From NCBI GenBank assembly GCA_038525015.1, contig JBCBID010000016.1:23389-87388 (forward strand): a stretch of DNA of 64,000 nucleotides. The letters run 5' to 3'. This document shows positions 20,210 through 49,149 of the stretch, piece by piece. Position numbers and translations under genes: made by a program. The notes beneath the pieces are model-generated. The model did no database searches and was not told where the DNA came from. It was given only the letters and a program-made list of their open reading frames with translations. Position 1 is the first letter of the stretch. The number at the start of each line of letters is the position of its first letter. Source of the DNA: Pseudomonadota bacterium (GTDB lineage Bacteria; Pseudomonadota; Alphaproteobacteria; Rhodobacterales; Rhodobacteraceae).

Positions 20210-20233
20210 TTCTATAATTCGCAAATTATGGAA
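20210..20233 (+). promoter_or_regulatory. Putative ArsR operator overlapping a TATAAT -10 box and the start codon
   Basis: TTCTATAATT-CGCA-AATTATGGAA (10-4-10, one mismatch); TATAAT at 20213-20218, ATG at 20228. Confidence 0.6.
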
Positions 20234-22068: not shown

Positions 22069-23321
22069 TGGAAACCTCTGCACGACCCGAGGGACTATCC
22101 GCATACATGGCCGTTACGGCCGCCTATTGGGGGTTCATGCTCACCGACGGCGCGCTTAGAATGCTGGTGCTTTTGCATTTTCACACTTTGGGCTTCTCGT
22201 CGGTCCAACTTGCTTACCTCTTCGTTCTGTACGAAATCGCCGGAATGGTGACGAACCTCTGCGCCGGTTGGCTTGCGGCACGGTTTGGGCTGACGTCCAC
22301 CCTTTATGCAGGTTTGGGGCTGCAGGTTCTTGCGTTGTTGGCGTTGGCACAGCTTGATCCCGGTTGGGCGATAGGCATCTCAGTTGCCTATGTGATGATT
22401 GTGCAGGGTGCGAGCGGAGTGGCCAAAGACCTTGCCAAGATGTCATCCAAATCCGCGGTAAAGCTGCTCGCTCCGACCGAAGGCGGTGGGTTGTTTCGGT
22501 GGGTCGCGCTTTTGACAGGGTCCAAAAATGCGGTGAAGGGCCTTGGCTTTCTTCTCGGGGCAGCACTTTTGGCCACTCTCGGGTTTACGTGGTCGGTGTT
22601 GGGTATGGCCACGTTCCTGACCATCGTTCTGTTTGCTGTTCTCACCTTGATGCCATCCGGGCTACCAGCCGGACGCAAGAGCGCCAAGTTCGCCGAGGTC
22701 TTTTCCAAATCGGCAAACGTGAATTGGCTCTCCATTGCGCGGGTTTTTCTGTTTGGGGCGAGGGATGTCTGGTTCGTGGTTGGGATACCGATCTACTTCT
22801 ATGCGGTCCTGTCCGATGGTAGCGAAGCCGGCAATCGAGCCGCATTCTTCATGATCGGAACATTTATGGCAGGATGGGTGATCCTTTATGGATTTATGCA
22901 AGCCGCTACGCCACGCTTGATGAACGTAGCACAGCGCCCCACGACCGACGTTGTGCGGTCCGCCCGCGGTTGGGCTTGGCTGCTGGCGGTCATTCCTGCG
23001 CTGCTTACATTTGCGGCTTTGGCTTCCGCAGAACCGCAGACCTGGTTGTCGATCGCCCTCATTGTCGGTCTGCTTGCCTTTGGCGCCGTATTCGCGATCA
23101 ACTCGGCCCTACACTCCTACCTTATCCTTGCCTTCACCAAGGCTGAGCGCGTCACCATGGATGTTGGTTTCTATTATATGGCGAATGCAGGTGGTAGGTT
23201 GTCGGGCACAATATTGTCCGGTTTGACCTATCAGGTGGGAGGCTTGCCGCTCATGCTTGGGACGGCGACACTAATGGTCGCATCAGCGGCGATCGCTGCC
23301 GGTTACTTAAAAGAAGTCTAA
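22068..23321 (+). CDS. arsJ: Organoarsenical efflux MFS transporter ArsJ
   Basis: YWGFMLTDGALRMLVLLHF, KDLAKMSSKSAVK, LTGSKNAVKG, DVGFYYMANA.GR; downstream of gapdh. Confidence 0.92.
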   Translation: METSARPEGLSAYMAVTAAYWGFMLTDGALRMLVLLHFHTLGFSSVQLAYLFVLYEIAGMVTNLCAGWLAARFGLTSTLYAGLGLQVLALLALAQLDPGWAIGISVAYVMIVQGASGVAKDLAKMSSKSAVKLLAPTEGGGLFRWVALLTGSKNAVKGLGFLLGAALLATLGFTWSVLGMATFLTIVLFAVLTLMPSGLPAGRKSAKFAEVFSKSANVNWLSIARVFLFGARDVWFVVGIPIYFYAVLSDGSEAGNRAAFFMIGTFMAGWVILYGFMQAATPRLMNVAQRPTTDVVRSARGWAWLLAVIPALLTFAALASAEPQTWLSIALIVGLLAFGAVFAINSALHSYLILAFTKAERVTMDVGFYYMANAGGRLSGTILSGLTYQVGGLPLMLGTATLMVASAAIAAGYLKEV

Positions 23322-25833: not shown

Positions 25834-25877
25834 ATCGCCTTCCCCATGTGTATCGGAGCATTGCGTGCACAGGGAAA

Positions 25878-25917
25878 GCGACAACTTCGTAACAAACGAA
25901 CAACGGTTTTGTGAAAG
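25878..25917 (-). promoter_or_regulatory. Putative tandem Pho box
   Basis: Minus strand CTTTCAC-AAAA-CCGTTGT-TCGT-TTGTTAC-GAAG-TTGTCGC: four heptamers at exact 11-bp phase, resembling CTGTCAT, 45 bp upstream of a phosphatase start. Confidence 0.5.
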
Positions 25918-26315
25918 GTGACCTTGTGCATTCCCTTTAACAGTGAACAGTTTAGGGCCTTGGTTTGAGTATGTCGGCCAGCTCACCGAATTATATGAAC
26001 CTTACAGACTTCATTGTCCTGGATAATCGGCGCCGATCCGGTCGCGGCACACGTCCTATTCCAACCAGAGACTGGCTGTTGCCGATAGCATTTTGGCTGA
26101 GCCGCGCAGTTCGCTGCACCCCGTTCAGGGCCGGTCCTTTTCCGCAAAAGGAGCACCACCCCTCGGACTCTCGCCTTCGTCGCATGCCCCGATCAAGATA
26201 CCGAGTGTGCCCGACCTATGCTTTCCACAAATACTTGTTCGGCGCTCATCGCTGTGCGTTGTGACAGACGGCGTACCCAGCGTGACAGAATCTCGGCCAT
26301 CTCCGCCCGTGAGGT

Positions 26316-26800
26316 GGGTGATCTTATCGTGATCCGGGCGCGTACGTTTGCACAAAAAGTACAGCATGCGATCCTGCGCGACATTCTGGTGGACGAAGCC
26401 CCGCGCCGTCTTGAATGGTAGCTATTGTTTTTGATCGCGCGCTTTGGCAGTTGTCATTTCTGCCCGCACTATAACCAAGATATCCATTGATCTAATCCAT
26501 GGCAGCCGCGTCGCCGTCACCCTTGAGAATAAGGGGCTGATCGGAATGGCAAAAGACCCGACAAGCATTCGCCGCAAGCTGATCTCTTTAACGACGGAGA
26601 GCAAGAAGACTGCTGATCGTATCTCACCCCCCGCCAAAGCTCACGTTCAAAGAGTGACGGCGCAACTGGACGATCAAGAACTCAAAGAACTCAAACGACT
26701 ACTTGGGCTGATTACCACGTTCGCCAAAGCGCTTCATGATGACAAGGCGACCTATTTAACCAGCCAAGATACAAAAGAGGTTACCCGCATACCCGTCTAA
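26316..26800 (+). pseudogene. MarR-family regulator pseudogene
   Basis: DLIVIRARTFAQK...LEW*LL (TAG 26419-26421), then a different frame gives ISIDLIHGSRVAVTLENKGLI..KDPTSIRRKLISLT (HTH and wing). Confidence 0.65.
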
Positions 26801-26883
26801 GCAGGACAACAAATAGCGACCAAGGACAGAATAGCGCACCCAAACGCTAAAGGAGTAGATGGTCTCTAATTCAGGGGGATCGC

Positions 26884-27400
26884 ATGAAACAGATTAAAGT
26901 GATCGCTGCCACAGGAGTGATGATGCTGATGTCAACCGGGGCATTTGCGCAAGCCAACTTAGCGGCTGAAACCGCGAGCTCAGGCGGTGCCGTGCACCTG
27001 TTCCCCGGCCCACTTGACCGAAGTGGCGTGTACACAAGGGATCGCCAGCATCCCGTTGGCTTATGGTCAGACTCTCACCAACTCGATCCAAAACGTCGCC
27101 AAGCGCAAAACGGATATCGCAGGAACGCCTCAAATCTTGCCGTTCCTAATGAGCCGCAACGTCGGGCCATATGGCTCGCCTGGTCCTGAGAAAGGTGCCG
27201 AACGTGCTGGAAAACTTCGCGCAATCACTCCTGTTAAGTTTGGTGTGTTTTTCATGTTCGCCTATGACGCCAAAGGCATTGGAGGCTGAGACGATCTGAA
27301 GGGTCGTAAGACCTATAAGGGGCCGCACCTTGGGGCGCGCTGACCATGCCAGCAGCATGATCCAGATCGTGATGGTCCCGAAAGATAGCGAAGGCTGCGA
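26884..27400 (+). pseudogene. TAXI-family TRAP solute-binding protein pseudogene
   Basis: Signal peptide and AQANLAAETASSGGAVHL, frameshift to GQTLTNSIQNVA..KTDIAGTP.ILPFLMSR.VGPY; far shorter than an intact receptor. Confidence 0.65.
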
Positions 27401-27408
27401 AGGCATGT

Positions 27409-28900
27409 TTGGTGCCAATCCGGCCGAGCACACTGCTCTACAGCACGGCACTCGTTTTTGTCGCCGTTGGCCCGGTCAACAGCGTGCCCTCAATCCCTGG
27501 AAGGGAGGATATGTGGCGCTGCATCGCCGGTATCGAAAAGCTGAAGGTTCGCCCCCATGCGACCGAGCGGCTTTATCCAATCGACGTTGCTATCATGATG
27601 TTGATTATTGCGCTCAAACATTCAGTGTGGCGCGCGTGGACAGGCACAAGCCGCGCATGGTTCGGGTCTTCATCGACATGGCGTTGGTGGTCGCAGCGGC
27701 CACGATCTCACTGGCGTCCCTGATTGAGAGTGACAGCTCGCGCTTGATTGCTTCGATCAAAGGCAAGCGCGTCCGCATCATGGCCGCGACGCTTGAAGCC
27801 GAAATCATCTTTGCCGAGAGGATGAGCCTGCCCGTGCCAGATGCGGTCCAAAACCCGAAATGCGTGGCGACAAACAGCGTCTGGCTGGTCGCAATCATGG
27901 GCAGCTACCCCCTGATATTTCTAGGTTACAACATCAAGGCCTGGGGCCTCCCGCTGGTCGCCATCTCGATTGTGGTAGCGATCTAAACCATCGACACGGT
28001 GCGCGTGTGGTATTTCCAAGGGCCCGATGACATCAACACATATCCGATGAACAATCCGGGGGAGAGCCGCGCACATTCCTTGAAAGTGTTCCCAACAAGC
28101 ATGACGCGCGGGTGAAGAATGCCGCAGGCATTCTTGGGAAGTTTATGAAAGTGATCTTGAATGTCGTGTTTGCCTACATTGTCCTTGGCGCACTGTTCGG
28201 TACGATTACAGGCGGGCCTGTTGTCAACGTCCTATCAAAAGGCGTTCTGACCATTCCGATGATGACCAGGCGCGAATTTTCCAAGGTTTTACCCGTGGGA
28301 TGGAGGCCTCGTCCCCGGCTCGATCATGCCGCGCGTTATGGGCATGGCTGCGTTCATTCTGGCGGCGATGACATGTGTGCCTTATCGCGACGTAATCATC
28401 GCTGCGACTTTGCCCGCCGTTGTCTATTTCCTGAGCCTGTTTCTGATCGCATCGTTTCAATCTCGCAAAAAGGGAATCGAGGCGATTAGTAATCTGACCA
28501 AGGATATGGGGACCACGCGCACAGACGTGCTGCATCTCAGCCAAGTCTTCCTATCTATTCTGCTGATCATTGGCCTGTTCCAGTTCTTTGCGATGACCGT
28601 AAAGATGCTGCTGGGTATGGGGATGACCGCGGTTCCGGCCCATATCAATGTCGCGTTGCTGATGGGCCTATGCTGATCGAACTTGGCATCGCGACCTTTA
28701 TGGCGCACATGTTCATCTTCTATTTCGCAATCGCCTCGGCGATAGCGCCGCCCGTCGCCCTTGCCGCGTCCACAATTTACTGAAGCTGAGCCGATCGCCA
28801 AGGGTTTCAGCGCCGTGCGGTATGACATTGTGATGTTCGTGATCCCCCCTTTGTCTTTACGTTCTATCCAGAGCATTCACTGATCGATCAAGCCGTCATC
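27409..28900 (+). pseudogene. TRAP fused (4TM/12TM) permease pseudogene
   Basis: Fragments in different frames: MALVVAAATISL, FAYIVLGALFG, MPRVMGMAAFILAA..VPYRDVIIAATLPAVVYFLSLF, AHMFIFYFAIASAIAPPVALAA. Confidence 0.7.
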
Positions 28901-29257
28901 GATCCGTTGAGCCCGTTCAGAGCCCCCTTGCCTGCATCTGAACGGGCGTTACCAAGCGCACCACCCCGGCGGAAAATCAAATACAGCAGCCTGTAAAGCA
29001 TCAAAGCCCATCAATTGGATCGCGCGTTGGCGGGTCGCAGTGCGCGGACAAGTCACTTAGCTCTATACCCTGAATCGTCGTGACTTTGGTTTTCCTGCTA
29101 GCGCACTCATAGCTGCCACCGTCGGTCAATGTAGGCGCCACAGCATTGCTTTTGAGTCTCAAAAACGCAGTAAAACTTTGCAAGTTTGACCAATGGCATC
29201 CACAAGATCGGTCTTGTCAGCATTGAACCTGTGCAGACACTGAGTAGTCTGAACTGC

Positions 29258-31258
29258 ATGATGAACGAACGCGCCTCTGACTTGTATGTGCCGTCATTTG
29301 TTTCGGTCAACTACGCAGGACTGAACAAAGGTGACGCGGAATACACTGTGTCAAATGAGGCAAGCGGCCGACATTTTTCGGCGAACGGACCGACCGTGGA
29401 ATTTATAGAAGCCATTCGGTCTTTGGGGTCACTTCAGCACGCTGCGGCGCAGTCACGGATGCCGACAGAGGCTGCGCAAGCACTTTTAGTACAGCTTATG
29501 CGGTTCGGTGTGGTCGTTCAGCGCGGCCAAACAAATCAAGAGACCACCAAGGCGAAAGCCCCATTTGAAGCCCGCGCCGTTATGATCCGGTTCGACCTGA
29601 TTGACGCCACCCCTGTCGTGAAACACTTTGCCGGGGTTGGTCGGGTGCTGTTTTCGCGCTTCGGCCTTGCACTTTGGATCAGTCAGGCGATCCTTAGCCT
29701 CTCGGCATTGCTGTTGAACCAGGACAAGGTGGCGCTGGCGCTATCGCGTGTCCCAGATACGGGCTTCAGCGGTGTTTTGGCATTTGCAGTCCTGCTGATC
29801 CTGCTCAAAGCGCTGCACGAAATGGGCCACGCCCTGGCGTATCAAGAGATGTGTCGCCGGGCGGCTATCGCACCGGGCCCGATCCGCATGGGCATCTCGA
29901 TATTCGCACTTACCCCTTTTCCCTTTACCGATGTCACCGGTGCATGGCGGCTCAGAAGCCGTAAGGCGCGCGCCATTATTGGTGCGGGTGGGTTATATCT
30001 CGAGTTCTTTTTGATCTTCGTTGCCACACTTTTCTGGACCATGACCGGCGATGGCTGGTTGCAGACAGCCATCTTTCACGTGGTCATGTTCTCGGCCCTC
30101 ACAAGCCTGATCTTCAACCTCAATCCGGCGGTCAAGCTGGATGGGTACTACATCTTGTCGGATCTGCTCGCCTTTCCCAATCTTGCCGGTCGGGCCTCTC
30201 AGAGCGCCCAGGCTTGGTTGGGAAGGCAGCTTGGTGCGGACATGCCAACACCCAGTCCGGGCCTTCTTGCGTACTGGGTCATAAGTTATCTTTACCGCTG
30301 GGTGATTTTCGCCGGAATATTCTGGCTGGCTTATCAGCTTGATCCTCGCCTTGCGGCCCCGGTCTTTGGTATCGTCATCTTAATGCTCGTCATTCGTCCA
30401 CTCCTGCGCAGCGTGCAGCACGCCATTAAACGCTCGGCCCGTCCTAGGCGGCTGGTGTCAGCGGGCGTCTTATTGGTCGTCTTGGTTATTGCGGGACTTG
30501 TTCCATTCACTGATCGGGTCTTGTTGAACGGCTACCTGAACCGTTTTGAAACCACATTTATCCGCGTGCCGGAACCTGCGCGTCTGTTGATCACAGAAAC
30601 AGACCTGCCACAACTACACAGCCCGGAACTGGCGCACGAGCAAACAGATCTCGGCCTGCAGCGTGAGATCATTCAGAACGCCAATCGCGCCGTTGCTCAA
30701 TCGCAGTCGGGGGTTGAGCGCGCGCGGCTTGAAACGGACCTCGCGCAGATCGCCGAAATGCAAGAAAACCTCGCCGTGCGTGCACGGACGCTGACAATAG
30801 CGGCGCAAATCAGTGACATTTGGACCCCGCTCCACGCCGACAGCTACGCCGGTTCATGGGTCAAACCAGGTCAAGAAATCTTGGGCGCGCTCTCAACACC
30901 TGTCACCCCGCATCTTGTCCTCTGGATGGATCAAGCCGATTTCGAGGTGGGCCTGCTGGCAGACGAAAATCGACTTCTTAAGGTGCGAATGAGCCATGAC
31001 CCCGCTTGCGAATTTAATGCAACACTTGACCGCACCGAAGAAGACGTTCTTCTGCGACAAGGCGCGATACAGATGCTTGCCGCCTTGCCAGACCCGCGTC
31101 CTCCGTGTCTTGATGAGGTTCCAAGCGGCGCAGCGGTGGTGGCCCGACATCCTGCAAGGCCGAAATCCATGATGGAGCGCGGCTGGAGAACAATGCAACG
31201 GGCCCTTCAGGACCGCCTTCCGGTGGAACTCCTGTTGGAGAATGAACAAAGGAATTGA
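29258..31258 (+). CDS. M50 (site-2) metallopeptidase membrane protein with N-terminal soluble domain and C-terminal adaptor-like domain
   Basis: LHEMGH (HEXXH), FNLNPAVKLDGYYILSD, TDVTGAWRL, several TMs, then hairpin-like region and GSWVKPGQEIL. Confidence 0.85.
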   Translation: MMNERASDLYVPSFVSVNYAGLNKGDAEYTVSNEASGRHFSANGPTVEFIEAIRSLGSLQHAAAQSRMPTEAAQALLVQLMRFGVVVQRGQTNQETTKAKAPFEARAVMIRFDLIDATPVVKHFAGVGRVLFSRFGLALWISQAILSLSALLLNQDKVALALSRVPDTGFSGVLAFAVLLILLKALHEMGHALAYQEMCRRAAIAPGPIRMGISIFALTPFPFTDVTGAWRLRSRKARAIIGAGGLYLEFFLIFVATLFWTMTGDGWLQTAIFHVVMFSALTSLIFNLNPAVKLDGYYILSDLLAFPNLAGRASQSAQAWLGRQLGADMPTPSPGLLAYWVISYLYRWVIFAGIFWLAYQLDPRLAAPVFGIVILMLVIRPLLRSVQHAIKRSARPRRLVSAGVLLVVLVIAGLVPFTDRVLLNGYLNRFETTFIRVPEPARLLITETDLPQLHSPELAHEQTDLGLQREIIQNANRAVAQSQSGVERARLETDLAQIAEMQENLAVRARTLTIAAQISDIWTPLHADSYAGSWVKPGQEILGALSTPVTPHLVLWMDQADFEVGLLADENRLLKVRMSHDPACEFNATLDRTEEDVLLRQGAIQMLAALPDPRPPCLDEVPSGAAVVARHPARPKSMMERGWRTMQRALQDRLPVELLLENEQRN

Positions 31259-31265
31259 GGGCGGA

Positions 31266-32027
31266 ATGGCGAGACGACGCGCAGTTGACAAAAATCAGAC
31301 GGTGGATGTGAAAGGGCGCCTGCCGCTGCTATACAAATCTCTCGCGCCCCTGACCCATGAGCAGCACAGCGATTTGATGGTGAAAGACGCACGCAACTTT
31401 GACTTTGCGCGTCATGCCAATGCAATCCCGCTGTCTTGTGACGAATTTGGTCAGGCAATGCGAGACTACCCTATCGTATTCACCGGAGCCAGCCAGCCTA
31501 CCCCGCTTGCACTCGTTGGTTTGACAAATGGCGTAAACGACCAAACCAATAAAGACGGAGCATGGGCCGAAGGGGCGTATGTACCTGCCTACCTGAGGCG
31601 GTACCCGTTCCTTTTGGTCAAAGAGAACACAGAAACAGACCGCCAAATCCTCTGCGCGGATATGTCCTCGGTCCTTTTCACATCGAAGGCCGATGGTGGT
31701 AGCGCCCTATTCACCGAAACAGGGGAAATGACAGAGCGGCTGTCCGATATTCTGGAATTTGCCAAGCGTTACGATGCGGCCATGCGACGGACCGAGGATG
31801 TGATGGAAGAGGTCACCAGGCTTGACCTGATGCAAGCATCCACCGTCAGCCTTCGGAAGGAAGGCAAGACTGCCAAAATCGAAGGGTTTTCAGTCATTGC
31901 CGAGGAGCGCGTGCGAGAGTTAGACGATGCGACGCTCGCAGACTTGGCCAGGCGTGGCTTGCTTGGCCTTTTCACAGCACATCAATTGTCATTGTCTAAT
32001 TTTTCAATGATGGGTGCGCTCAAGTGA
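31266..32027 (+). CDS. SapC family protein
   Basis: LLYKSLAPL..EQH, AIPL..DEF......YPIVF, ALVGL..G.N, YVPAYLRRYPF, GLLGLFTAHQLSLSNF. Confidence 0.85.
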   Translation: MARRRAVDKNQTVDVKGRLPLLYKSLAPLTHEQHSDLMVKDARNFDFARHANAIPLSCDEFGQAMRDYPIVFTGASQPTPLALVGLTNGVNDQTNKDGAWAEGAYVPAYLRRYPFLLVKENTETDRQILCADMSSVLFTSKADGGSALFTETGEMTERLSDILEFAKRYDAAMRRTEDVMEEVTRLDLMQASTVSLRKEGKTAKIEGFSVIAEERVRELDDATLADLARRGLLGLFTAHQLSLSNFSMMGALK

Positions 32028-32827
32028 AACGCATTCAGAGGTTCACCGCCTTATGTGCATTGATGTGTCTTTTGCCGGCCGCAACTCTCGCGCAAAGTCT
32101 GACGGCCATCCTTGAACCCGCTGACTTGGTCGAAGTCAGATCGACTGTCGCCGGCATTCTGACAGTGATTGCGGTCACCGAAGGGCAGACAGTGGAAAGG
32201 GGCGCATTGCTGGCGCAAATTGATGATCGCAGCCAAGCCGAGAGGGTGGCCCTTGCCCAAGCAGTTGCCGGCGCCGACGGGCGCATCCAACGTGCCGATG
32301 CTCAGATTGCCCAGGCGGAATCGCTGGTCGCTCGGATGGAAAAGGCGCGCGGCCGCGGGGCGGCACAAGAGTGGGAGGTTGAGCAGGCACAGCAAGCGCT
32401 GGCGCTCGCTGTGGCAGACAAGCAAATCGCTCTGGATGGGCAAGCGCAAGCACAGGCACAATTGAAGCTCGAAAAGGCCGTTCTCGAGACTTACAGGCTA
32501 CGTGCCCCCTTTTCGGGGATCGTTCTTGAGGTCAAACAGAACATCGGTGCCAATGTCGATATGCAAACGGTGGTCATGACTGTCGCCCAACTCGAGGCTT
32601 TGGAGGCAACAGCCTTCATCCCATTGACATGGCTGAATATTATTTCGCAGGGCGATGCGCTTCGCGCCAGTTTCGATGACCAGACCAAACGACCCGTCGA
32701 TGTCGTCGTGACATCGATTGACCCAAGGATTGATCCCGCAAGTCAAACCGTGCGCATTCGCGTCTCGCTCGACAATGCCGAGGGCATGCATCGCCCCGGC
32801 GCTACCCTTGTGCTTCAGGCACCATGA
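32024..32827 (+). CDS. Periplasmic adaptor (membrane fusion protein) with cleavable signal peptide
   Basis: GTG overlapping sapC stop; VTEGQTVERGALLAQID, coiled hairpin, LRAPFSGIV, IDPRIDPASQTVRIR, HRPG. Confidence 0.88.
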   Translation: MKRIQRFTALCALMCLLPAATLAQSLTAILEPADLVEVRSTVAGILTVIAVTEGQTVERGALLAQIDDRSQAERVALAQAVAGADGRIQRADAQIAQAESLVARMEKARGRGAAQEWEVEQAQQALALAVADKQIALDGQAQAQAQLKLEKAVLETYRLRAPFSGIVLEVKQNIGANVDMQTVVMTVAQLEALEATAFIPLTWLNIISQGDALRASFDDQTKRPVDVVVTSIDPRIDPASQTVRIRVSLDNAEGMHRPGATLVLQAP

Positions 32828-34437
32828 ACGACGTGTCCAACGAGCCAAAGCGTCAGTCGCTTGGCGATGCGTTGCAGTCGCTCTTTTCAAGCGCTGTTGC
32901 AACACCATTTCCCAAACGCCTGATCACATTCACACAAGCGCTTATTCCCGGTGCGCGAACTTGGGTGCTGGCCCCAACATCGGACGACACTTGGCTATCC
33001 TGGCCAGACGGACCGATGCCGGATCACATTGAGCCATTAGCCACAAAGTCGCTCAAGGATACAGACCAATGCGTACAAGCGGATGGCCGCTGCCTTGGGG
33101 TTCCAATCTGCCTGGAAACCGGCGCCAGTGCAGCACTTGTCGTTGAATTGCAACAAGGAGGACAAGCCGCGCTCGCACTTGCCTTTGAACGGCTGAGCTT
33201 GCTGTCACAACTTACATTTGCCCGCCACAGGCCCGACGCTGTGGTTCAATTGCAAAGGGTTCTCTCTTTACTGCCGCAATTGAACAAACGGTCACCCGAA
33301 CCTGTGCAAGAGCTTGCCGATGCTCTGGCACAGTTCATGTCCGCGGACTATGCTGCGGTTGCAAGGTTTGATGACTCTAGAATATCGGACCTGCACATCT
33401 CCGGCCAGGTATCGGGCAAGCGCAACGCAATCCTACCTGCCACCTTGCGCGACACGCTAGCCGAAACGGCGCGTCTGAGGCTTTGCACATCTCATCGCGC
33501 TTTTTCGGGCGGCGCAAACCAAAGCAATGGCATCGTCTTCCATCTCGAAAACCCGTCACGCAATAAAGACATATTGCCACTGATCGCTGCAGCAGCGGAC
33601 AAGATGGCCCCATCCGAGGCATATCAACGCGTCAGGTGGAAACGCCTCGGGCGGCGTGCCGCAATGCTCTTGGTCGTGATCGGATTGTCCTTTATCCCAA
33701 TCCCAGACGGGGTCGACCTGTCAGCCACGGTTGCAGCCATCTCCCAGCGGGTGATCACCAGCCCACTGGACGCACCCATCCAGCACATTAACGTGCGCGA
33801 GGGGGACAGCGTGATTGCAGGCGAAACCATCCTTGCTCAATTCGATACGCGCGAGATCGACCTCGAACTCATCGCCGCGCAGGCATCGTATACCAAAGCG
33901 CTGCTTGATCGTGAGCGCGCACGTGCCAGCCGCCTGGCCGCCGATCTGCGTACCGCCGAGATTGAGGCTGACCGTCTTTCAGCCGATATCGAACTTCTAC
34001 AGGCTCGCAAGGAAATGGCACAATTGATTGCCCCGATCACCGGCATTGTCCTTGGCGAGGGTCTTGCCGATCTAAAGGGGACGATCCTGCGCCGTGGTGA
34101 CCAGTTGCTAGAGATTGCCAACCCCACCTCGCTTGAACTTGATATCTCTGTCCCGCAGTCGCAAATCGCTCGGGTCAGCGTCGGCGCCAATGGGGTCTTT
34201 CGACCCGACTTCGACCCCTCCCTACGCTTGGATGCCACGCTCGCAGTGATCTCACCCGCCGCCTCCAGCGCCGAACGCAACCCACTCTACCCGGCCAAGG
34301 CCAAATTCGCGGCTGACACTGCAAGACTGAAACCGGGCATGACCGGGGTTGTTGCGGTCAATCGGACTTGGCGCCCAACGTGGCAAGTGGTCTGGCGCGA
34401 ATTGAGAAACTGGGTCCTGCTGCGTCTCTGGGTCTAG
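32824..34437 (+). CDS. HlyD-type adaptor with large N-terminal cytoplasmic (GAF-like) region
   Basis: About 275 aa soluble N-terminus, TM RRAAMLLVVIGLSFIPIP, then VREGDSV, LIAPITGIV, LKPGMTG. Confidence 0.8.
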   Translation: MNDVSNEPKRQSLGDALQSLFSSAVATPFPKRLITFTQALIPGARTWVLAPTSDDTWLSWPDGPMPDHIEPLATKSLKDTDQCVQADGRCLGVPICLETGASAALVVELQQGGQAALALAFERLSLLSQLTFARHRPDAVVQLQRVLSLLPQLNKRSPEPVQELADALAQFMSADYAAVARFDDSRISDLHISGQVSGKRNAILPATLRDTLAETARLRLCTSHRAFSGGANQSNGIVFHLENPSRNKDILPLIAAAADKMAPSEAYQRVRWKRLGRRAAMLLVVIGLSFIPIPDGVDLSATVAAISQRVITSPLDAPIQHINVREGDSVIAGETILAQFDTREIDLELIAAQASYTKALLDRERARASRLAADLRTAEIEADRLSADIELLQARKEMAQLIAPITGIVLGEGLADLKGTILRRGDQLLEIANPTSLELDISVPQSQIARVSVGANGVFRPDFDPSLRLDATLAVISPAASSAERNPLYPAKAKFAADTARLKPGMTGVVAVNRTWRPTWQVVWRELRNWVLLRLWV

Positions 34438-37400
34438 TACGCGCTGCCCGGCGTCGCCGTTGCGCCTGTCAGAAATTCGTAGTTGAACCTATTCAGGCTG
34501 TCGCCCAGAGGATTGAGCGACGCTTCATACAGGCTTTGTACGGTCAGACCGGCAACATTCTCGAATACTTCATCCACCCGGAGCGTGTCGCCGACTGAGA
34601 ATGCCTGCTGGTTAAAGGCAGAAGCATAGAATGTGCGCGCGTTGAACGCTCCGTTATCCTGAGGCAGTGTCGACGGCCGGTCGACGGATATAGAGACATA
34701 GTAGCTTTCGGTGTTCAGGTCAGTACCCACCTCCGCAAAGCGTACCTCGCCAAGCGAGGCGCTTTCCTGGATTGGCTGTCGATCCAACAATTCAACGGGC
34801 AAATCAAAGACCTCGCTGCCCTTAAATTCGGAGAAGAAGTCGTCATATACAGTTTCAACCGATGATGTCGGGAAGATCGCGATCCAATGCCCTCCGGCAT
34901 CGGCCAGGACATGTCTGATACCCGTCAACTGCCCCTGCTCACCGAAAAGACGGATCGTCACGTTTGAGCCCGGCTCCGCGGTACCGGAATAGATCGGATC
35001 AATCGCAAGAACTGGCAGGAACTGGGCATCGTCAATTCCAAGGGTCGGAAAGAAGTCTCCTTCCTCTTCATCGCCGGGGATGGGCTGTGCGATGATGAAC
35101 GCGTCGTCTTGTGTCGTTGTCTCCCGATTGAACGGGTTCGTTGGGTCAGGGCTCGACGTGCCGGTTACAGAAGCAACGTTGGTCACACCGGTCAATACGT
35201 CAGTCTGGAAGCCGACAAAGACGTCATACGTGATCGTCACGCTCTCACCCGGCAAAAGGCGCGGGATCGAGATTGTCAGCACCGTTTCTCCAGCGGCAGA
35301 GCCCGAGGTTACGGTAGCCAGTGCCGGGTCGCTTACAACGGTCCCTCCGGTCACGGACAATTGGAAAGGCAAAGCATCGGTCACAACCGCGTTGTAGATA
35401 GGCGCAGTGGCGGTGGCGGCATTTGTGACAACGACCGTATAAGTAATTGTGTCGCCGACCAGCGGATCAAGGTCATTCACCGTCTTGTCGATACTCAATT
35501 CCGGCTCAACAACCTCGATTGTGGCCGTGTCTTGCTGCGTGTCGAGTGGCGCTTCACCCTGTGGCGTCACTGTGAGAGCACCGGTATTGGTCAGCGTCGC
35601 ACCGGCAAAGGCTGCCGGATCATCTGTCACCACAGACACGACCTCGACACGGATTTCGTCATCCTGACCTATGCTGCCGTCAAATGGGTTTGAAATGGAA
35701 CCCAGATCAATTGTGACGAAGCCACCCACCTCGGAAATGATCGGTGCACCCGCGACGATACCTGTACCAACCGATGTCACGCTGGCCGATACAAAAGCCA
35801 ATCCCGGCGGCAACGCATCGGTCAGCACGACACTGTCCATGTCAATCTCAGGTAGCGTGAGGACCAGTTCATAAGTGACCTGTTCGCCAATAGTCAGGTC
35901 AAGAAGGGCCGGATCAAACGCATCAGTCCCGGTATCGGGGTTCTCGCCGTCGATTGCGGTCTTGCTCAGGGCCGGTATCGTCGCGACGCCGTGGTCATCC
36001 ATCTCTGTCAGCGTGCGCCCGGTTGGTGTCTCGGGATCGCCGTCGGGCACGGTATCAAACAGGATCGATGCGGTGTTGAGCGTCGTGCTCGCCGGGTCGA
36101 CCGAGATGCCCAATATCGCTTCGTAAGACACAGTGGCTTCCTGACCGGGCAGCAATTCAGGCAAGAGCAAACTAAAGCCGGTTGTCTCATCCACGGTCAC
36201 CGCCTGCGTCACACCGTCGATGACGACGCTCACAGACCCGGACACAAGCGTCAGGTTGGAATCGGTCAGCGTATCGATGACCTGAATGTCGTATGCCGGT
36301 CCAGACCCTGTGTTTTCAAAGGTCAGTGTGTAAGGGACCACATCGCCGGGATTGGCGGCAAGCGGACCCGACTTCTCAAAATCAATCTCCGGCTCCACGA
36401 CTTCTACTGTGGCACTTGCATTCACGGGGTCAAACGCTGCCGCGCCTGCAGGATCCACATTGAGTTCAGCGGCATTTGTCAGCGCCACGCCCGCCGTATT
36501 TGCGGGATCGTCAGCGACCACCGCGGTCACCTCAACCGTGATCCGATCATCGGTGCCGATGTCGCCGTTTGGCGCATTGTTGACAGAGCCAAAGTCAAAA
36601 AGGATGTCCTGCCCGACATTGCTGATCGTCGGTGTGTCAGCACCGGTCAGATTGGCACCGGTCGACACCAGATTGGCAGACACAAAGGTCAACCCATCAG
36701 GCAGCGTGTCTGTCAGAACCACGCTGTCCAACAGAATTTCAGGCAGGAAAATATCAAGCGTATAGGTCACTTCTTCGCCAATCGACAGATCGAACGTGTC
36801 GGCGTCGAATTGCTCCGCGCCCGTCGCGGCCTGACTGGTGAACGCGGTGTTCTTGAACAAGAAGGGGACGGTGGCGACGGAATGATCATCTTCATCTGTG
36901 CCGGTGCGCGCACCCGGCGTCGCAGGGTCACCATCGGGAACAGTGTCGAATTCGATCGTAGCTGTGTTCGGGAAGCTTTCGGCATTGGGCGCGCCCGGCA
37001 GCAGATCGACATCATAGGTGATCAACAGAGTCTCACCCGGCTGCAAGGCATCCACGAGTGTTTCAAATCCGGTACCGTTGGGCGTAATCGTCAACGATCC
37101 CAAAACATCCGACCCGTTGATCGTAGCGCCGGTCACGGCGTTCAGAACAAGATTTGGATCGCCCAAGACATCCGTCACAACGATGTCAAAGGCTGGACCA
37201 GTTCCTGAATTGACCACTTCAATCGTGTAGGTCACCGTATCGCCTGGATCGGCAGCAATTTCGCCGTCTTTCTCAATCGACAGGTCAGGCTCTACAACCT
37301 CGACATCCGCCGTATCGGTCTGCGTCTCCAGCGGGGCCTCACCCTCGGGTGTGATTGTCAGTGTTGAGGTGTTGGTCAACAACGCGCCGTCGGCCGCCGC

Positions 37401-46400: not shown

Positions 46401-46940
46401 GACGGTGGACGGATCAGTTTGCGGATTGTTCAACGGGTCGCCACCAAAAGCGAACCCGCCGCGGGTCTGAATAACAAACTCCTCGTCCAAATCTGCTTGA
46501 TCAGAGAAATCAAGCGTCATCACAACATCCACGGGCGGGTTACCCGCCGAGAATGAACCAAAAGGCAGTTCAAACACCAACAGCGTGTCGCCAGGTGTTC
46601 CGGTCACCACCAGCGGATCACCAAAGCTGTCAAGCGCAATCGGATGCAACGCTTCTCCGGCGGCATCAAAGACGATCTCGGTCGTGACGACGCTGCCACC
46701 CAAAAAGGTTGCGCCATCAAAGGTGACACCGTCATCCCCGTCAGGCCCAAGCGTAGGCAGGATCACATCAATGAACGGCACAAAGCCGGTGTCCGTCGGA
46801 TCGACGTTATCAAACGTCAGGGTGAACTCTACGTCCTGCGCGCCAATCTCGACATCCGCAGGCGCGTCAACAGTAACCTGCGCCTCGCCATCCAGAACAA
46901 TCCGATCCTCAAGCAGCTCGAACTTTGGCAACACAGTCAT
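34434..46940 (-). CDS. Giant (4168 aa) acidic surface protein with ~24 isopeptide-forming/DUF11-like Ig domains
   Basis: Uninterrupted ORF; alternating repeats K...IGE.VTY.L...LPE...TD.LP.GL...N.A and EP.L.I.K...GD.V.Y...N.G.GPA.D...N.A; N-terminal LEDRIVLD motif; no Sec signal. Confidence 0.92.
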   Translation of the reverse strand: MTVLPKFELLEDRIVLDGEAQVTVDAPADVEIGAQDVEFTLTFDNVDPTDTGFVPFIDVILPTLGPDGDDGVTFDGATFLGGSVVTTEIVFDAAGEALHPIALDSFGDPLVVTGTPGDTLLVFELPFGSFSAGNPPVDVVMTLDFSDQADLDEEFVIQTRGGFAFGGDPLNNPQTDPSTVSAFGTTTVGQTLFDIQKQTLSGGGVLAENEAATGPSYVYTYQILVDVAPGQTLTDFNLVDNLPPEIVYLGNLSVSPAADVNVEPTAGQIAGPGNDLLDLTFASITGTAVVTFDYFIDEFAANETDPTLNDSSGDPAPVQNGVQGSGTWDPLDEDDATQSVSDSALNEIEAVSLAVQKGVAVFEDTDLPGVVSPGDVYEFTLDIQVSDYFTYGDLVITDILGNGWEYLNAPGFTPTLTTVESNGGSLTSEVLTPNESTSFDTATGETTVVWDISQALLDAGQDAFLTGDDADGTVNLQSTTATISYFARVLDEFVDDGDVGDIAFNQGDLLQNNAQITATVRDNDTPTTVLGTESDETGAGIQTPFGFIESKSVAFLNGVAPDPDVPIAAGDQVTFSIIYNAPLGAFEQLNITDNLPQNVFDAAELTVFNNVVSAGPPAPGEAQFGLASQAYIDAGGGIPALSNVPADNQIDFDFGTFTSDPRGEVQIEILFTTTVIDAVFEDGLLLTNQATAFESNSTSSSVDTTAIANFIFSQPDLEITKGVIATDSVDPSTSFTDPVGPVSFSAPGSAGARFSDTISSDSLGTTPVDANVENIDAGDIVSFAIVVENTGQAPNGAFDVQIEDTLPPGFVIPASGLNLTVTDGTGSRVIGFTGDLFSGGILLDDRGSEGALSAFDPTAGDNLVVITYDLEAAQSVTSNDVIENTATVANFAAFESTPSNTAINRATPDLTDDASASVEDVQVSKRLVDREFGVQGNSEVLVGEEFTFEVEIDLQEATYENAVLSDTVRSGGAFGDFEILSAEITGWDTSVLTSSNGITLGSAGAVAADGNSVSFDLGTLVNLGNNDVSDDVITFEVTARSLGSQDEGAGDRLANTGRFQADGVSSAASNGVNLIEPQLTIDKSASPNIVQAGETVSYQIVVDNPIASRDAPAFDLELTDLLDPNVVLVAGSVNVVGGTGVSIVNGNGTGDTDIEITADELGVNDTLTITYEATVLASVESGIIIDNTANVTFDSLPTDDADDERDFSISDDAEVATAAASIDKSITDTSNADTDGGDLSIGETVTYDITIVLPEGTNSNATLVDTLPTTPGTLTLVSSEVISIGDNITGSLLAAGAAGTVVGDDVVFEFGTLSNVNDLVQNGDDEIVVRIVAQLNDLPDNMSGDTLVNTARFITDNTDVSDTAVVEVVEPVLGIDKVADVSEADAGDTVTYTITSSNSGNGPAYDIVLDDGVVDPSIVAGTPPVASIRILDGATDVTPSLGADAPSVTFPTGTGGLQAIVPVLLPGQTIEVVFETVVVDAVAFDSTFSNEATITRFDTDPAGDTTDPDDGRVFTGPSDSVEIDTPPPGIEKTLVGTDDPNTLGADVGVSETLTYEIELTLPEGTSDILVVDDLPEGLTPISAVITTMDASITSDNLAQGDSDISSGFISVGSDGGFEFDFGTVTNPGDNLAANDAIVLTVTAQVADVVTVSDGVTLTNEATISLIDPLSGAVLIDPDTGAPQSFSDDASANVVEPELDIDKTVLPTTADAGDTVAYTILSQNIGSGPAYDVVLNDPLSDAGLTIPTPAVGSIRILDGGADVTPIGTDAPVLVYPTGAGGLQATIPVLLPGQTIEIAFEAVVADAVTFSTDVVNTAEVTRFDTDPAGDGTDGDDGRVFDDTLAGYVVPEDGAVVTTPDATLAKVVVATSDSDTTGTDVGIGETVTYELTITVPEGTADLVLSDALPSGLTAISAEVISLGSGGNITTDNINAGDTDASGSIVLTSSSVSFDFGTVQLAATDDAAAVDETIVVRVVAQVDDIASNADGATLENDASLDVNDPTTGAPLQPDPTASAVVEIVEPDLTIDKSGPIAANPGDVVPYVVTITNTGTGPAHDVFFEDLLSDPELALTGTPSFEIDSTTITPAVTLVGDGFSALIGSLQPGETLTVTYDAVLATTAPEAQSFPNIALIEYDTVPDGDPDTPGARSFTDQDDHAVATVPVVSKEATGSSLTPTGSGEFDGTDFDLVVGEEVTYTLTLVLPEVSMDSVVLQDTLPDGLAFVSAGFVSQGGQVSGADDVVINNSGAVTTFDFGTVDNTADGALNTDDQVIVELTAVVVDVAAAIDGASLINTSTLDVIAAGGIVLDQASDTAAVDIVEPELAFEKSGSEAADAGDQISYQIEIENTGTGPAFDIFVADTLSDPNISLTSGSVVATLNGTATALTVDETGDGFSFTFGQLLPNDILVVTYDADVAAGFAAGDIIENTATAEFDTVPDGDPSSPDGRTDTVEDDHVVGAGPLLTKTTVDSGNTDTGDGAFTSGVPDLVVGETVTFALTVTLPEISIDGATLVDTLPDGLSFVSASVDSVGVGLVGADAPAISGAGQTVTIEFGAIENPFDGSLGADDEVVVLVTALVEDIATNADGAVLTNSATLTLTPEGQAPLDPVTATTDVEIVEPDLEITKDGSIAVNPGDDVDYTLSITNSGTGPAYDILVEDELDNTFLSFNSGSLIASIDGTDITGSLSLVETATGFEVIIPALQPGETLEIGYSALLDASAPEAQSFPNLASISFDTVPDGDPNSPTGRGDSDDDDFSVATVPFIVKSPIATDFGDTTSDQGDADLFDLTVGETVTYRYEVFLPEIAMDSVVLTDVLGPELELIAVDVVSFGAGISAANTDPIVTSVDPQNFSIDFGAVNNPADGTIGPDDVIVLEVQARVLDVPTAASGQVVDNTVTVNVDPAGPAGPLAPATDTAQVEIVDPNLTLDKAGPLAVNPGETATYTLTLNNTGDGPAYDVLIEDQLADGNLSLVSGSVSLSLDGMPVSITPSETGTGFDVLVPVILPGQTLVVTYDALLSDTAPAAESFGNTATASFDTVPDGDPDSPTGRSDVITDEFEIATIPVLEKLAVDTGEASTGTGQGDGAIFDLSVGETVTYQLTLTLPEIDLSAIEITDTLPPGLSFVSASVDSVGADIALASPAIINNSGATTTISLGASTSLGDGTINTEDQVVIEIVAVVADVAAAADGALLTNTSTLTITPEGEAPLETQTDTADVEVVEPDLSIEKDGEIAADPGDTVTYTIEVVNSGTGPAFDIVVTDVLGDPNLVLNAVTGATINGSDVLGSLTITPNGTGFETLVDALQPGETLLITYDVDLLPGAPNAESFPNTATIEFDTVPDGDPATPGARTGTDEDDHSVATVPFLFKNTAFTSQAATGAEQFDADTFDLSIGEEVTYTLDIFLPEILLDSVVLTDTLPDGLTFVSANLVSTGANLTGADTPTISNVGQDILFDFGSVNNAPNGDIGTDDRITVEVTAVVADDPANTAGVALTNAAELNVDPAGAAAFDPVNASATVEVVEPEIDFEKSGPLAANPGDVVPYTLTFENTGSGPAYDIQVIDTLTDSNLTLVSGSVSVVIDGVTQAVTVDETTGFSLLLPELLPGQEATVSYEAILGISVDPASTTLNTASILFDTVPDGDPETPTGRTLTEMDDHGVATIPALSKTAIDGENPDTGTDAFDPALLDLTIGEQVTYELVLTLPEIDMDSVVLTDALPPGLAFVSASVTSVGTGIVAGAPIISEVGGFVTIDLGSISNPFDGSIGQDDEIRVEVVSVVTDDPAAFAGATLTNTGALTVTPQGEAPLDTQQDTATIEVVEPELSIDKTVNDLDPLVGDTITYTVVVTNAATATAPIYNAVVTDALPFQLSVTGGTVVSDPALATVTSGSAAGETVLTISIPRLLPGESVTITYDVFVGFQTDVLTGVTNVASVTGTSSPDPTNPFNRETTTQDDAFIIAQPIPGDEEEGDFFPTLGIDDAQFLPVLAIDPIYSGTAEPGSNVTIRLFGEQGQLTGIRHVLADAGGHWIAIFPTSSVETVYDDFFSEFKGSEVFDLPVELLDRQPIQESASLGEVRFAEVGTDLNTESYYVSISVDRPSTLPQDNGAFNARTFYASAFNQQAFSVGDTLRVDEVFENVAGLTVQSLYEASLNPLGDSLNRFNYEFLTGATATPGSAY

Positions 46941-46993: not shown

Positions 46994-48961
46994 CTAATTA
47001 CTGCGTCCAGCGCGTCGCAACTTATACGTCTTCTCGCCTCGAATTTCTTCCGTCAGGTTCATCGACAGCCCCCAACGGTTCAACAAAAGCCCGCGCGCCC
47101 GGGCCAGATTGGCCGCAGACACCTCGCGCGTCGCGCGCGCCTGTGCTACCGCCTGCTCGGTCGTCTGAAGGTTCTGATAGCTAGACAGCAGCGCCGACAG
47201 GAATTCGATCCCTTGGTCGCCCACACCTTCATTCCAGCGCGCCTGAATAGCATTCGTGTCAGCCTGTGCAGCCTGCAGCGCGCGCCGTTGCGCGATCAGG
47301 TCATTGCAGGCCACGATGTATTCATTCGCTGCAACATCCACTTCCAGCAGGACGGTCGCAATGGTCGACAACACCTGACGCTCCTGCTGAACCGTCTCGA
47401 TCCGCCGGCGATGATAACGCGCATCCCGCTCATCAAAACCTAGGGGAACCGAAAATTTCAAGCCAACAAGCGACCCGGAATTGCCCGACTGATTGTCAAA
47501 CGAGTCACTCAGGCTGCGCCCCGCTGCGCCGCCCTGCGACCGCGCCTCAAGCACCAGGTCAAGCTCAGGCAAACTCTCATTCGCAGCTTGCCCCTCCCGC
47601 AGAAGGGCAGCCTCGTATTGCAAAATGGCCTGTTGCAACTCGGGCCGGTTCAAAAAGATGGCCTCGATTGTGTCTTCGGCCGACAGCAGCGCCAGCGCCC
47701 CATTCGGCGACGATGTCGGCAGCACCTCCACCGCAGCTGGCCCAAGCCGCTTGTCATTCACCAAAGCGGCCAGGCGGAACTCCGCATTTTCCAAAGCGGC
47801 CTTGGCCCGCACGGTGTCAGCGCGCCACTGTGCGGCCAGCGACCGCGCGCGATTTACCAGCACCGGATCCGCGTCAATACCAACGCGGTTGTCGATCTGG
47901 TTGGCGATCTGAGCACCGTGCCCCGCCAGATGCTGACGCTGCACAAACACAGCGCGCGCAACATATAGGTTCCAATAGGCACGTTCGACTTCAAGCAAAT
48001 GCGCCGACGCCTGGCGATGGAACTCCTCTACAGCAATTTGCGTATCCATGTTGGCGATGCGGCGCGGAATGTCGTTGTAGGTGACACCTCCTCCGCGCAA
48101 GAGCGGCTGAACATAGGTCAGCGCGGTCTCGGAGGTGGATTGCTTGCCCGGAATGAACGACGTGTCGTTTGTATCGATTGTGGTAAAGCGCTGCGACAAC
48201 GATATCTCGCCACCCGTCTTCAAGCGGCTCCGCACCCCGAACTCGACATCCGTTTCATCGCGGATCAGCCGCTCAGACCCGCCCGCATCGGCTGGGCTCG
48301 TTGCAAATTCATTTGTGCGCTCAGCGCTTGCATCCGCAAAAATCTCAGGGACAAAGCGTCCCTTGGCTTCTTGAATCGCTGTCCCGCGGATCGCGGGCAA
48401 GTCCCCAAACGCGGCAATTTGATACGAGTTCTGAACGGTTGAATAGACCGTGTCGGGCAAAGAAATCGCGCGGCCACGTTCACCGGGCAAAAGATCACCT
48501 CGATGCGCGCGGCCCACCCACCACTCGCCAGCGGTGGACGGGGCGGTCGAACGCGCCGCACTGCGCACGCGCGTCAGCGATGTCCCAAGGCCACGTTCCT
48601 TGGCCTCGATAAACGCATGCCGTCCAAGAGCGCGCCGAATGTAGATGGCCCGGTCCGCCGTGTTGCGAAACGCTTTATAAGTGATCGTGTCGACGGGCCA
48701 GTTTTCGTTGCTCAGGTCCGCGCTGGACAGGTTGAACTCACCATTGCCCTCCGCTTCAGGGTTTCCGAAGCGATCAACTCGCTGCCGCGACTGCTCGCCC
48801 GATAGCCGTTCGCCTTGCTGATTGGCTTCTATTTCTTCACCCACAGACGGGCTGAAACCGCGCTCGCGCGGAAGATCACTTGCTCCCGGCGTGATAGGTC
48901 CTTCGGCGCAACCAGCCAAAACGAAGCCTAGCGCTACCGCGCCGAGTTTGATCTGTCCCAT
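46994..48961 (-). CDS. TolC-family outer membrane channel, lipoprotein with N-terminal extension
   Basis: MGQIKLGAVALGFVLAGC lipobox after GGGGA RBS; YVQPLLRGGG, LLEVERAYWNL, RPELQQA, ESLPELDL, GLKFSVPLG, two helical/barrel repeats. Confidence 0.88.
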   Translation of the reverse strand: MGQIKLGAVALGFVLAGCAEGPITPGASDLPRERGFSPSVGEEIEANQQGERLSGEQSRQRVDRFGNPEAEGNGEFNLSSADLSNENWPVDTITYKAFRNTADRAIYIRRALGRHAFIEAKERGLGTSLTRVRSAARSTAPSTAGEWWVGRAHRGDLLPGERGRAISLPDTVYSTVQNSYQIAAFGDLPAIRGTAIQEAKGRFVPEIFADASAERTNEFATSPADAGGSERLIRDETDVEFGVRSRLKTGGEISLSQRFTTIDTNDTSFIPGKQSTSETALTYVQPLLRGGGVTYNDIPRRIANMDTQIAVEEFHRQASAHLLEVERAYWNLYVARAVFVQRQHLAGHGAQIANQIDNRVGIDADPVLVNRARSLAAQWRADTVRAKAALENAEFRLAALVNDKRLGPAAVEVLPTSSPNGALALLSAEDTIEAIFLNRPELQQAILQYEAALLREGQAANESLPELDLVLEARSQGGAAGRSLSDSFDNQSGNSGSLVGLKFSVPLGFDERDARYHRRRIETVQQERQVLSTIATVLLEVDVAANEYIVACNDLIAQRRALQAAQADTNAIQARWNEGVGDQGIEFLSALLSSYQNLQTTEQAVAQARATREVSAANLARARGLLLNRWGLSMNLTEEIRGEKTYKLRRAGRSN

Positions 48962-49149
48962 ATGTCCCCCGTCGTGTTCAAACCCACGTTCTTGTTGTCG
49001 AAACTTGCCCGCAAAAACGACTCCAACGCAATCTCTGAAAGTGCAGCCGGCGTAGTTTCGCTTGATATGTGTTTTTGCTGCAAGACGCCGCAAGTATTAA
49101 AGCCAGCGCGACATTCGCACGCCGGGACTTTTTGACGCGTTTTCCCCCT

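Follow-up and report, generated by a model that had tools for sequence, protein, structure and literature searches.

This report concerns a fusion gene and its giant neighbour in a 64,000-nucleotide stretch of DNA (the window) from contig JBCBID010000016.1 of assembly GCA_038525015.1, a member of the Rhodobacteraceae. The fusion gene, P0001, is read on the plus strand from an ATG at 29258 to a stop codon at 31258 and encodes a protein of 666 aa in which three modules are joined: a domain of the PqqD/RRE fold (RRE, recognition element of peptides made by the ribosome and modified after translation, RiPPs), predicted to be cytoplasmic (residues ~10-90, 29285..29527); a core with seven transmembrane (TM) helices that resembles the site-2 proteases (S2P) of peptidase family M50 (residues ~130-417, 29645..30508); and a membrane-fusion protein (MFP), or adaptor, domain with an alpha-hairpin, predicted to be periplasmic (residues ~418-650, 30509..31207). 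The neighbour, P0002 (34434..46940, minus strand), is a convergent open reading frame (ORF) for a 4168-aa repeat protein with DUF11 and isopeptide domains, here called the cargo. It starts MTVLPKFELLEDRIVLDG and carries at residues 7-18 a motif of the LEPR-XLL, or ExLExRxLL, class (FELLEDRIVLDG, 46887..46922, minus strand) that abuts the first domain. The sequence features described below suggest that P0001 recognises, and perhaps trims, this N-terminal tag during export of the giant protein. A preliminary description of the same DNA had given the fusion gene the span 29258-30200, which cuts it after 314 of its 666 codons; the RRE and M50 modules that it named are there, and the MexA/AcrA-like adaptor domain had been missed.

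Three further genes follow P0001 on the plus strand, and the stops and starts of all four overlap: a gene for a SapC-family protein (261 aa, 31242..32027; PF07277, 5e-59) without signal peptide or TM helix, one for a short periplasmic adaptor of the HlyD/RND-MFP type (267 aa, 32024..32827) with an N-terminal signal peptide, and one for a second inner-membrane adaptor (537 aa, 32824..34437) composed of a 270-aa cytoplasmic domain, a TM helix at residues 275-293 and a periplasmic HlyD domain. The cargo ORF converges on this operon and overlaps the long adaptor gene by 4 nt. Directly upstream of the cargo gene, on the same minus strand, lies the gene for a TolC-like outer-membrane factor (699 aa, 46994..49093; PF02321 OEP, 3.5e-21); the best OEP match of this protein is to residues 474-656, and its first 250 residues had no Pfam match. 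The N-terminal domain of the long adaptor (32824-33645) holds 16 invariant positions among 10 orthologues; it had no Pfam match, and its profile resemblance to PDB entries, phytochrome GAF and CitA PAS domains, was faint (E ~0.6). Upstream of the fusion gene, a stretch of 3.3 kb (25987-29257) with an ordinary GC content of 0.51-0.57 contains no ORF of more than 218 aa; compared with 24 related loci by tblastx, and with Rfam, it gave no match.

No ATP-binding cassette (ABC) transporter or other ATPase was found within ~10 kb of the operon, and no ABC domain was detected in the operon, in the neighbours scanned from 15 to 50 kb or in the homologous loci examined. The locus contains no C39 peptidase, and neither the operon nor its immediate surroundings showed a sigma or anti-sigma gene. 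The window genome (95.9% complete) gave a single SecA_DEAD match, in a 904-aa open frame consistent with the housekeeping SecA; a second SecA was not present in the genome at this completeness, nor a SecA remnant in the window.

The protease core of P0001 carries HEMGH (residues 187-191, 29816..29830) and NLNPAVKLDG (residues 287-296, 30116..30145) where TM2 and TM4, respectively, reach the cytoplasm, with Asp295 as the third zinc ligand, i.e., the HExxH and NxxPxxxLDG motifs of Peptidase M50/site-2 proteases. Residues H187, E188, H191, N287, N289, P290, D295 and G296 were invariant in an alignment of 57 homologues with identities down to 29%, in agreement with the intact HEMGH...NLNP..LDG site reported in the preliminary description. 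The AlphaFold2 model built from this alignment had a mean pLDDT (predicted local distance difference test) of 89.8. Hydropathy and the positive-inside rule predicted seven hydrophobic helices within residues ~130-417 in an N-in, C-out orientation, with the K/R-rich loops 187-239 and 384-398 inside. Because of this predicted topology and the position of the motifs at the cytoplasmic helix ends, the RRE-like domain and the protease site would both face the cytoplasm, and the adaptor domain would face TolC. The C-terminal module (~418-650), with the C-terminus predicted outside, is beta-rich with a helical hairpin (456-479, 485-510); its membrane-fusion protein fold was seen in the AlphaFold2 model and in the Foldseek matches to MexA, AcrA and MacA (E 1e-9 to 1e-6). 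Run separately against Pfam and NCBIfam, the C-terminal half had no match.

Among curated families, NF041824 (daptide MpaP type) gave the best match to P0001 (E 2e-31), aligning residues 26-379 with profile positions 15-361 of 379; the second-best family was the YydH/LiaK epipeptide protease (8e-5), not RseP. By its motifs P0001 is a divergent member of the M50 superfamily, and by profile comparison and gene neighbourhood (SapC, adaptors and a giant protein) it is related to the daptide protease MpaP but not itself one. The family to which it belongs comprises 8304 clusters at E values of 1e-10 or less and 4127 at 1e-30 or less; among the 150 best-scoring members listed, most are ~650-750 aa long, and many of the matches span the RRE into the adaptor domain.

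Because the adaptor domain dominated the Foldseek matches of the full-length model, the N-terminal domain was also modelled separately (mean pLDDT 86.7). In the AlphaFold2 prediction three strands (15-23, 26-33 and 38-43) are followed by helices 44-56, 59-65 and 70-82, with pLDDT above 90 cited for these elements, which bears out the earlier description of a domain of about 90 aa with three strands and then helices. The best PDB fold matches were TbiB1 with leader (5v1v), TfuB1 with leader (6jx3), TigE (8vpo) and MccB, the MccB entries matched (e.g. 3h9q, 3h9g) having been solved with the peptide MccA; the Foldseek probability was 1.0 and the TM-scores were 0.56-0.67, with modest E-values of 2e-3 and above. 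Two profiles were used for sequence comparison, A2 for the window-type N-domains and A4 for the N-domains of distant family members. Directly against PDB sequences, A2 gave weak winged-helix matches only (E of at least 0.035), so that the link to PqqD needed a chain through the distant members: A2 matched A4 by hhalign at 95% probability (E 4e-8), and A4 matched PqqD 3g2b (1.3e-8), TfuB1 (5.7e-5) and PqqCD (9.5e-5). The domain thus has the winged-helix fold of RREs, and its sequence homology to PqqD and known RREs is indirect, by way of A4. The isolated domain had no match in Pfam or NCBIfam; the NF041824 match of the whole protein, which starts at profile position 15, covers most of the N-terminal region of that model. 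The best-conserved segment of the domain among the 57 homologues is the beta2-turn-beta3 stretch SNEATGxYFxAN, which would correspond to the edge strand at which RREs pair with leader peptides. The predicted structures support an RRE-like identity of the domain, and the comparison with PqqD proposed in the preliminary description is upheld both by the fold matches to leader-bound RREs and by the profile chain to 3g2b.

At the start of the cargo no Sec signal was evident on inspection by eye, a check made without a signal-peptide predictor, and the LEPR-type motif found there is not an accident of sequence. A search with cargo residues 1-160 yielded 237 giant proteins with the first domain, of which the best 120 were inspected; ~85 of these have an LExR leader of the same kind and in the same place as the LEDRIVLD-type motif that had been noted at the cargo start, ~25 have a classical Sec signal and ~8 are leaderless. 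The Sec signals end exactly at the start of the first domain (e.g. ...AQAQ followed directly by PVATATV), and the leaderless proteins begin directly with it; three of the latter (P0211, P0214 and P0237) carry RTX repeats (PF00353). The distance from the motif Arg to the TFDN anchor of the first domain has a median of 32 residues, and leaderless proteins reach TFDN at residue 24-31. Since homologues carry an LExR motif, a Sec signal or nothing in this position, the leader is best described as an N-terminal module that is detachable and stands where a signal peptide otherwise would.

The operon and the cargo are conserved together in the homologous loci L001-L021. The Paracoccaceae loci L001-L012 repeat the set of fusion gene, SapC, two adaptors and convergent cargo; among them is that of the cultured relative Thalassobacter stenotrophicus CECT 5294 (L001), which has the same operon. 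In Limibaculum, Hyphomicrobiaceae, Acetobacteraceae and Bosea the genes stand in the order cargo-TolC-fusion-(SapC)-adaptor-adaptor. SapC keeps its position in L001-L016, the TolC-like gene is syntenic in L014-L021 and L081, and no SecA-like gene is present in L001-L021 and L081. The cargos of the syntenic alphaproteobacterial loci start LEKLEDRILLTAEP, VRLEERLLLTAEP or FALEERLLLAAQP. In Achromobacter a giant of the DUF4347/cadherin type that starts LALEPRLLFDAAG and scores 20.4 bits, over the cut-off of the LEPR-8K model (NF012209), is followed by an OEP gene, two adaptors and a 698-aa M50+HlyD_3 protein 28% identical to P0001. The same arrangement with a SecA-like gene added was found in Ramlibacter and two other Burkholderiales loci, whose giants are also over the cut-off (28.1 and 18.1 bits); the synteny of system and giant thus spans Alpha- and Betaproteobacteria. 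The SecA-like genes of the Burkholderiales loci L022, L023 and L028 stand right after the M50 gene, encode ~650 aa or more and are 33-35% identical to the housekeeping SecA; Achromobacter and the lineage of the window are without such a gene.

Within the genus, an orthologue of P0001 (E below 1e-250) was present in 4 of 61 genomes; the same four genomes, and no others, had the cargo N-domain, in each case on the contig of the orthologue. In a sample of 201 alphaproteobacterial genomes from 184 genera, the P0001 family occurred in 17 genomes; 12 of the 17 had LEPR-8K matches over the cut-off, against 6 of the 184 genomes without the family (Fisher p = 1.5e-11), and when the count was restricted to matches at the start of frames of 1000 aa or more, the figures were 12 of 17 versus 1 of 184 (p = 1.2e-14). 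The motif opens a giant ORF adjoining the fusion gene in 11 genomes of the sample. One genome (G083) has three paralogous RRE-M50-adaptor genes (L092, L093 and L094), each beside its own giant ORF, the giants starting LELEPRLMFDGAA, ALEQRVMLDAAL or RLEPRIMFDGAA. Around two Sec-type and two leaderless cargo homologues the system genes were absent within 10 kb, and the two leaderless-cargo genomes searched contained no member of the P0001 family, which the same search detects in the window genome.

These distributions bear on the possibility that the adjacency is non-functional, the M50-adaptor-TolC set serving a small peptide or some other substrate and the giant leaving by an unlinked route. 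Such a set would fit the relatives of the M50 core, which work on small RiPPs, the lack of an ATPase in the locus, and the distant family members in Acidobacteria and Zixibacteria that adjoin kinase-like genes and not giants. Against it stand the tight gene overlaps, an operon that converges on the stop codon of the cargo, the synteny across two proteobacterial classes, the exact co-occurrence within the genus, the association across genera and the three systems of one genome with a giant neighbour each; a small-peptide substrate is further weakened because no conserved ORF or RNA was found in the 3.3 kb upstream. This explanation is regarded as very improbable.

Distant members of the family in Zixibacteria, Ignavibacteria and one unclassified metagenome-assembled genome (L031, L036, L040, L043, L050, L062 and L079) adjoin ORFs of ~1000 aa. 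These have a protein-kinase-like N-terminus (GxGGTAEV) and are not giant LExR proteins; they may represent a different use of the RRE-M50 scaffold.

We take P0001, with moderate confidence, to form the inner-membrane core of a TolC-linked export apparatus without an ABC transporter, whose substrate, probably processed as well as exported, is the neighbouring giant. What ties it to the cargo tag is the synteny, the phyletic pattern, the association across genomes and the natural exchange of leaders. By analogy with the RRE-fused proteases of RiPP pathways we infer that the RRE binds the leader and that the S2P core cleaves it. Like the RREs of RiPP pathways, the RRE would take up the cargo leader on the cytoplasmic side as an additional beta-strand, possibly while the 4168-residue chain is still being translated; the chain would then enter the protease/adaptor assembly N-terminus first, lose its leader at the S2P site and leave through TolC. 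Peptidase-containing ABC transporters (PCATs, e.g. CvaB) couple leader recognition and cleavage to export, and the analogy to them drawn in the preliminary description fits in its logic, though not in its parts, the locus having neither an ABC transporter nor a C39 peptidase. What that description had observed is confirmed, and its interpretation is supported in the parts open to the tools used here. A broader proposal, that diderm bacteria possess a distinct secretion route for giant proteins in which an LExR leader replaces the signal peptide, an RRE reads it, an S2P built into the translocon clips it and a three-adaptor/TolC conduit carries the chain without a dedicated ATPase, is put forward as a tentative possibility. 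With neither an ABC transporter nor a second SecA in this lineage, the motor of such a route would have to be the housekeeping SecA or a proton-motive or folding-driven ratchet.

Several observations weigh against assigning P0001 this role. No motor or pore component was found, there being no ABC gene in the locus and a single SecA_DEAD match in the genome, and to our knowledge S2P cores do not conduct chains of 4000 residues. P0001 scores under the gathering threshold of Pfam M50 (PF02163; 15.9 versus 27.2 bits), which the Achromobacter homologue passes (32.1 bits) along with that of Pfam HlyD_3, and under the equivalog cut-off of NF041824 (109.5 versus 300 bits). The cargo lies just under the NF012209 LEPR-8K cut-off of 17 bits, at 15.0 bits for the N-terminus alone (E 0.015) and 15.9 bits in the genome scan, yet its ELLEDRIVLD matches the consensus ExLExRxLL. 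The genomes in the association test are phylogenetically non-independent. No signal of specificity between RRE and leader is apparent, since the three leaders of G083 are nearly alike though the RREs differ. Two LExR-tagged homologues have no adjacent system, the neighbouring genes on their contigs looking planctomycete-like. The two remaining points concern the C-terminus of the cargo and the spacing of its leader.

The last ~238 residues of the cargo (~3931-4168; 34437..35150, minus strand) form a conserved domain that ends exactly at the stop codon. A C-terminal domain of this kind (~200 aa) occurs in 71 of 119 first-domain homologues, all of them with LExR leaders, and is missing from the Achromobacter cargo as well as from homologues with a Sec signal or no leader. 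The element that is recognised could be this domain, which could also serve as an anchor or as a second signal. The apparatus might then export the giant with its address in this domain, in SapC or in the 270-aa domain of the long adaptor, the RRE binding something else or being structural. The substrates of type I secretion use C-terminal signals, and neither SapC nor the long adaptor's cytoplasmic domain, both of them conserved, has an assigned role. The cargo of Achromobacter, however, lacks the C-terminal domain and has an unrelated body (DUF4347 and cadherin-like repeats), so that the N-terminal motif is the only feature that the cargos share, although the system is the same; SapC is missing from L017-L021 and L081, and the best-conserved part of the RRE domain is its beta2-beta3 edge. 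An address elsewhere than in the N-terminal tag is therefore considered unlikely.

Between the conserved motif and the first folded domain there are 0-4 residues. This leaves little spacer from the recognition strand to a scissile bond, so that cleavage may lie elsewhere or not occur. The RRE might bind the leader without the M50 core removing it, the core acting as a checkpoint or regulator or cutting elsewhere, e.g. by freeing cargo that is stalled or plugged, as LapG does, or by processing another partner, and the tag staying on the mature protein. S2Ps act classically in regulated intramembrane proteolysis, and in the epipeptide system maturation of the peptide persists after deletion of the M50 protease EpeP (PMC10885120). 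The nearest curated relatives of P0001, by contrast, are leader-removing S2Ps of RiPP pathways and not RseP or SpoIVFB, its predicted active site is on the same side of the membrane as the RRE, its catalytic residues are invariant across the family, and the operon has no sigma/anti-sigma partner in or beside it. Retention of the tag is accordingly given a low probability, and the reading of P0001 as a recognition and probable processing core is preferred.

The locus is flanked by genes for a Hint_2-domain protein (2.4e-57; 18975-20039, minus strand) and a 769-aa phytase-like/choice-of-anchor-I protein (23677-25986, minus strand). Between them, at 20228-23321, lie three genes in a row, one joining an ArsR-type helix-turn-helix domain to a low-molecular-weight phosphatase and the others encoding a GAPDH homologue and an MFS transporter, a trio that we take to resemble an arsenate resistance module of the GAPDH/ArsJ type. 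On the other side, at 49207-50508, lies a gene that diverges from the TolC gene and encodes a member of the Omp85 family with one POTRA domain (Pfam Omp85 1e-31, POTRA 4e-7).

Kamneva, Poudel and Ward (2015; PLoS One, PMC4452313) reported a gene row of similar composition, consisting of a secondary SecA_DEAD, a Peptidase_M50/HlyD, an HlyD and a GAF/HlyD protein and sometimes an OEP; a secretion-related role with the M50 protein as a possible pore was suggested, and the role was called 'completely unknown'. The window shares with it the M50-HlyD fusion, the short HlyD, the long HlyD with a cytoplasmic N-domain and the OEP, and neither has an ABC transporter. The window differs in having no secondary SecA_DEAD (in the operon, the window or the genome) and in carrying SapC, and a GAF domain was not confirmed; the 2015 paper names no cargo, leader or RRE. 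The locus is a variant of a known but functionally unassigned module.

In the daptide pathway, proteins of the MpaP family join an RRE to a site-2 protease and are credited with leader removal (bioRxiv 10.1101/2023.03.08.531785), and the M50 protease EpeP is thought both to cleave and to export its peptide (PMC10885120). P0001 resembles MpaP (NF041824) and EpeP/YydH (NF058609) in its N-terminal RRE on an intramembrane HExxH protease; it differs from them in its extra periplasmic adaptor domain and predicted coupling to TolC, in the absence of a daptide or epipeptide gene nearby in the window, and in its presumed substrate, a protein of 4168 residues instead of a peptide. With the type I systems that secrete giant adhesins (HlyBD-TolC, LapBCE) the window has in common that adaptors and a TolC-family duct adjoin a giant repeat protein; unlike type I secretion and PCATs, the window has no ABC transporter, C39 peptidase, RTX or GG leader and has three adaptor modules instead of one, and the putative signal is N-terminal and not C-terminal.

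The planctomycete motif RRLxxExLExRxLLA (Pfam PF07595), from Studholme et al. 2004 as cited in PMC8567305, is there given as a proposed novel export signal. The cargo is like the LEPR-XLL (NF012209)/PF07595 proteins in that its ELLEDRIVLD fits ExLExRxLL and stands N-terminally on a giant surface-type protein; it departs from the LEPR-XLL motif in that Asp replaces Pro and IVLDG replaces LLFxA. A search of the literature found no receptor or machine for the LEPR-XLL motif in print and nothing that joins the 2015 gene row, the 2004 motif and the RRE-S2P fusions; searches for M50 with HlyD and TolC, or for SapC with type I secretion and HlyD, found nothing, and LEPR-XLL and DUF4347 appeared in incidental mentions only.

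Three elements had thus been published before: the gene row in 2015, a putative export-signal role for the motif in 2004 and the RRE-S2P fusions of daptides in 2023. The present locus adds a SecA-less, SapC-bearing variant of the row, a series of leader, Sec signal and no leader on one homologous domain, the exact co-occurrence within a genus, and an argument from the predicted topology that RRE and active site lie on the same side of the membrane. Giants of the LEPR-XLL type rank with the largest proteins of bacteria. Should the RRE-S2P-adaptor fusion prove to be the receptor of their motif, then the motif, the 2015 gene row and the RRE-fused site-2 proteases would become one testable pathway, for which this locus offers a minimal version without a SecA paralogue and, in the homologous cargos with a Sec signal or no leader, natural controls; leader recognition in the style of RiPPs would then extend from peptides to proteins of 4000 residues.

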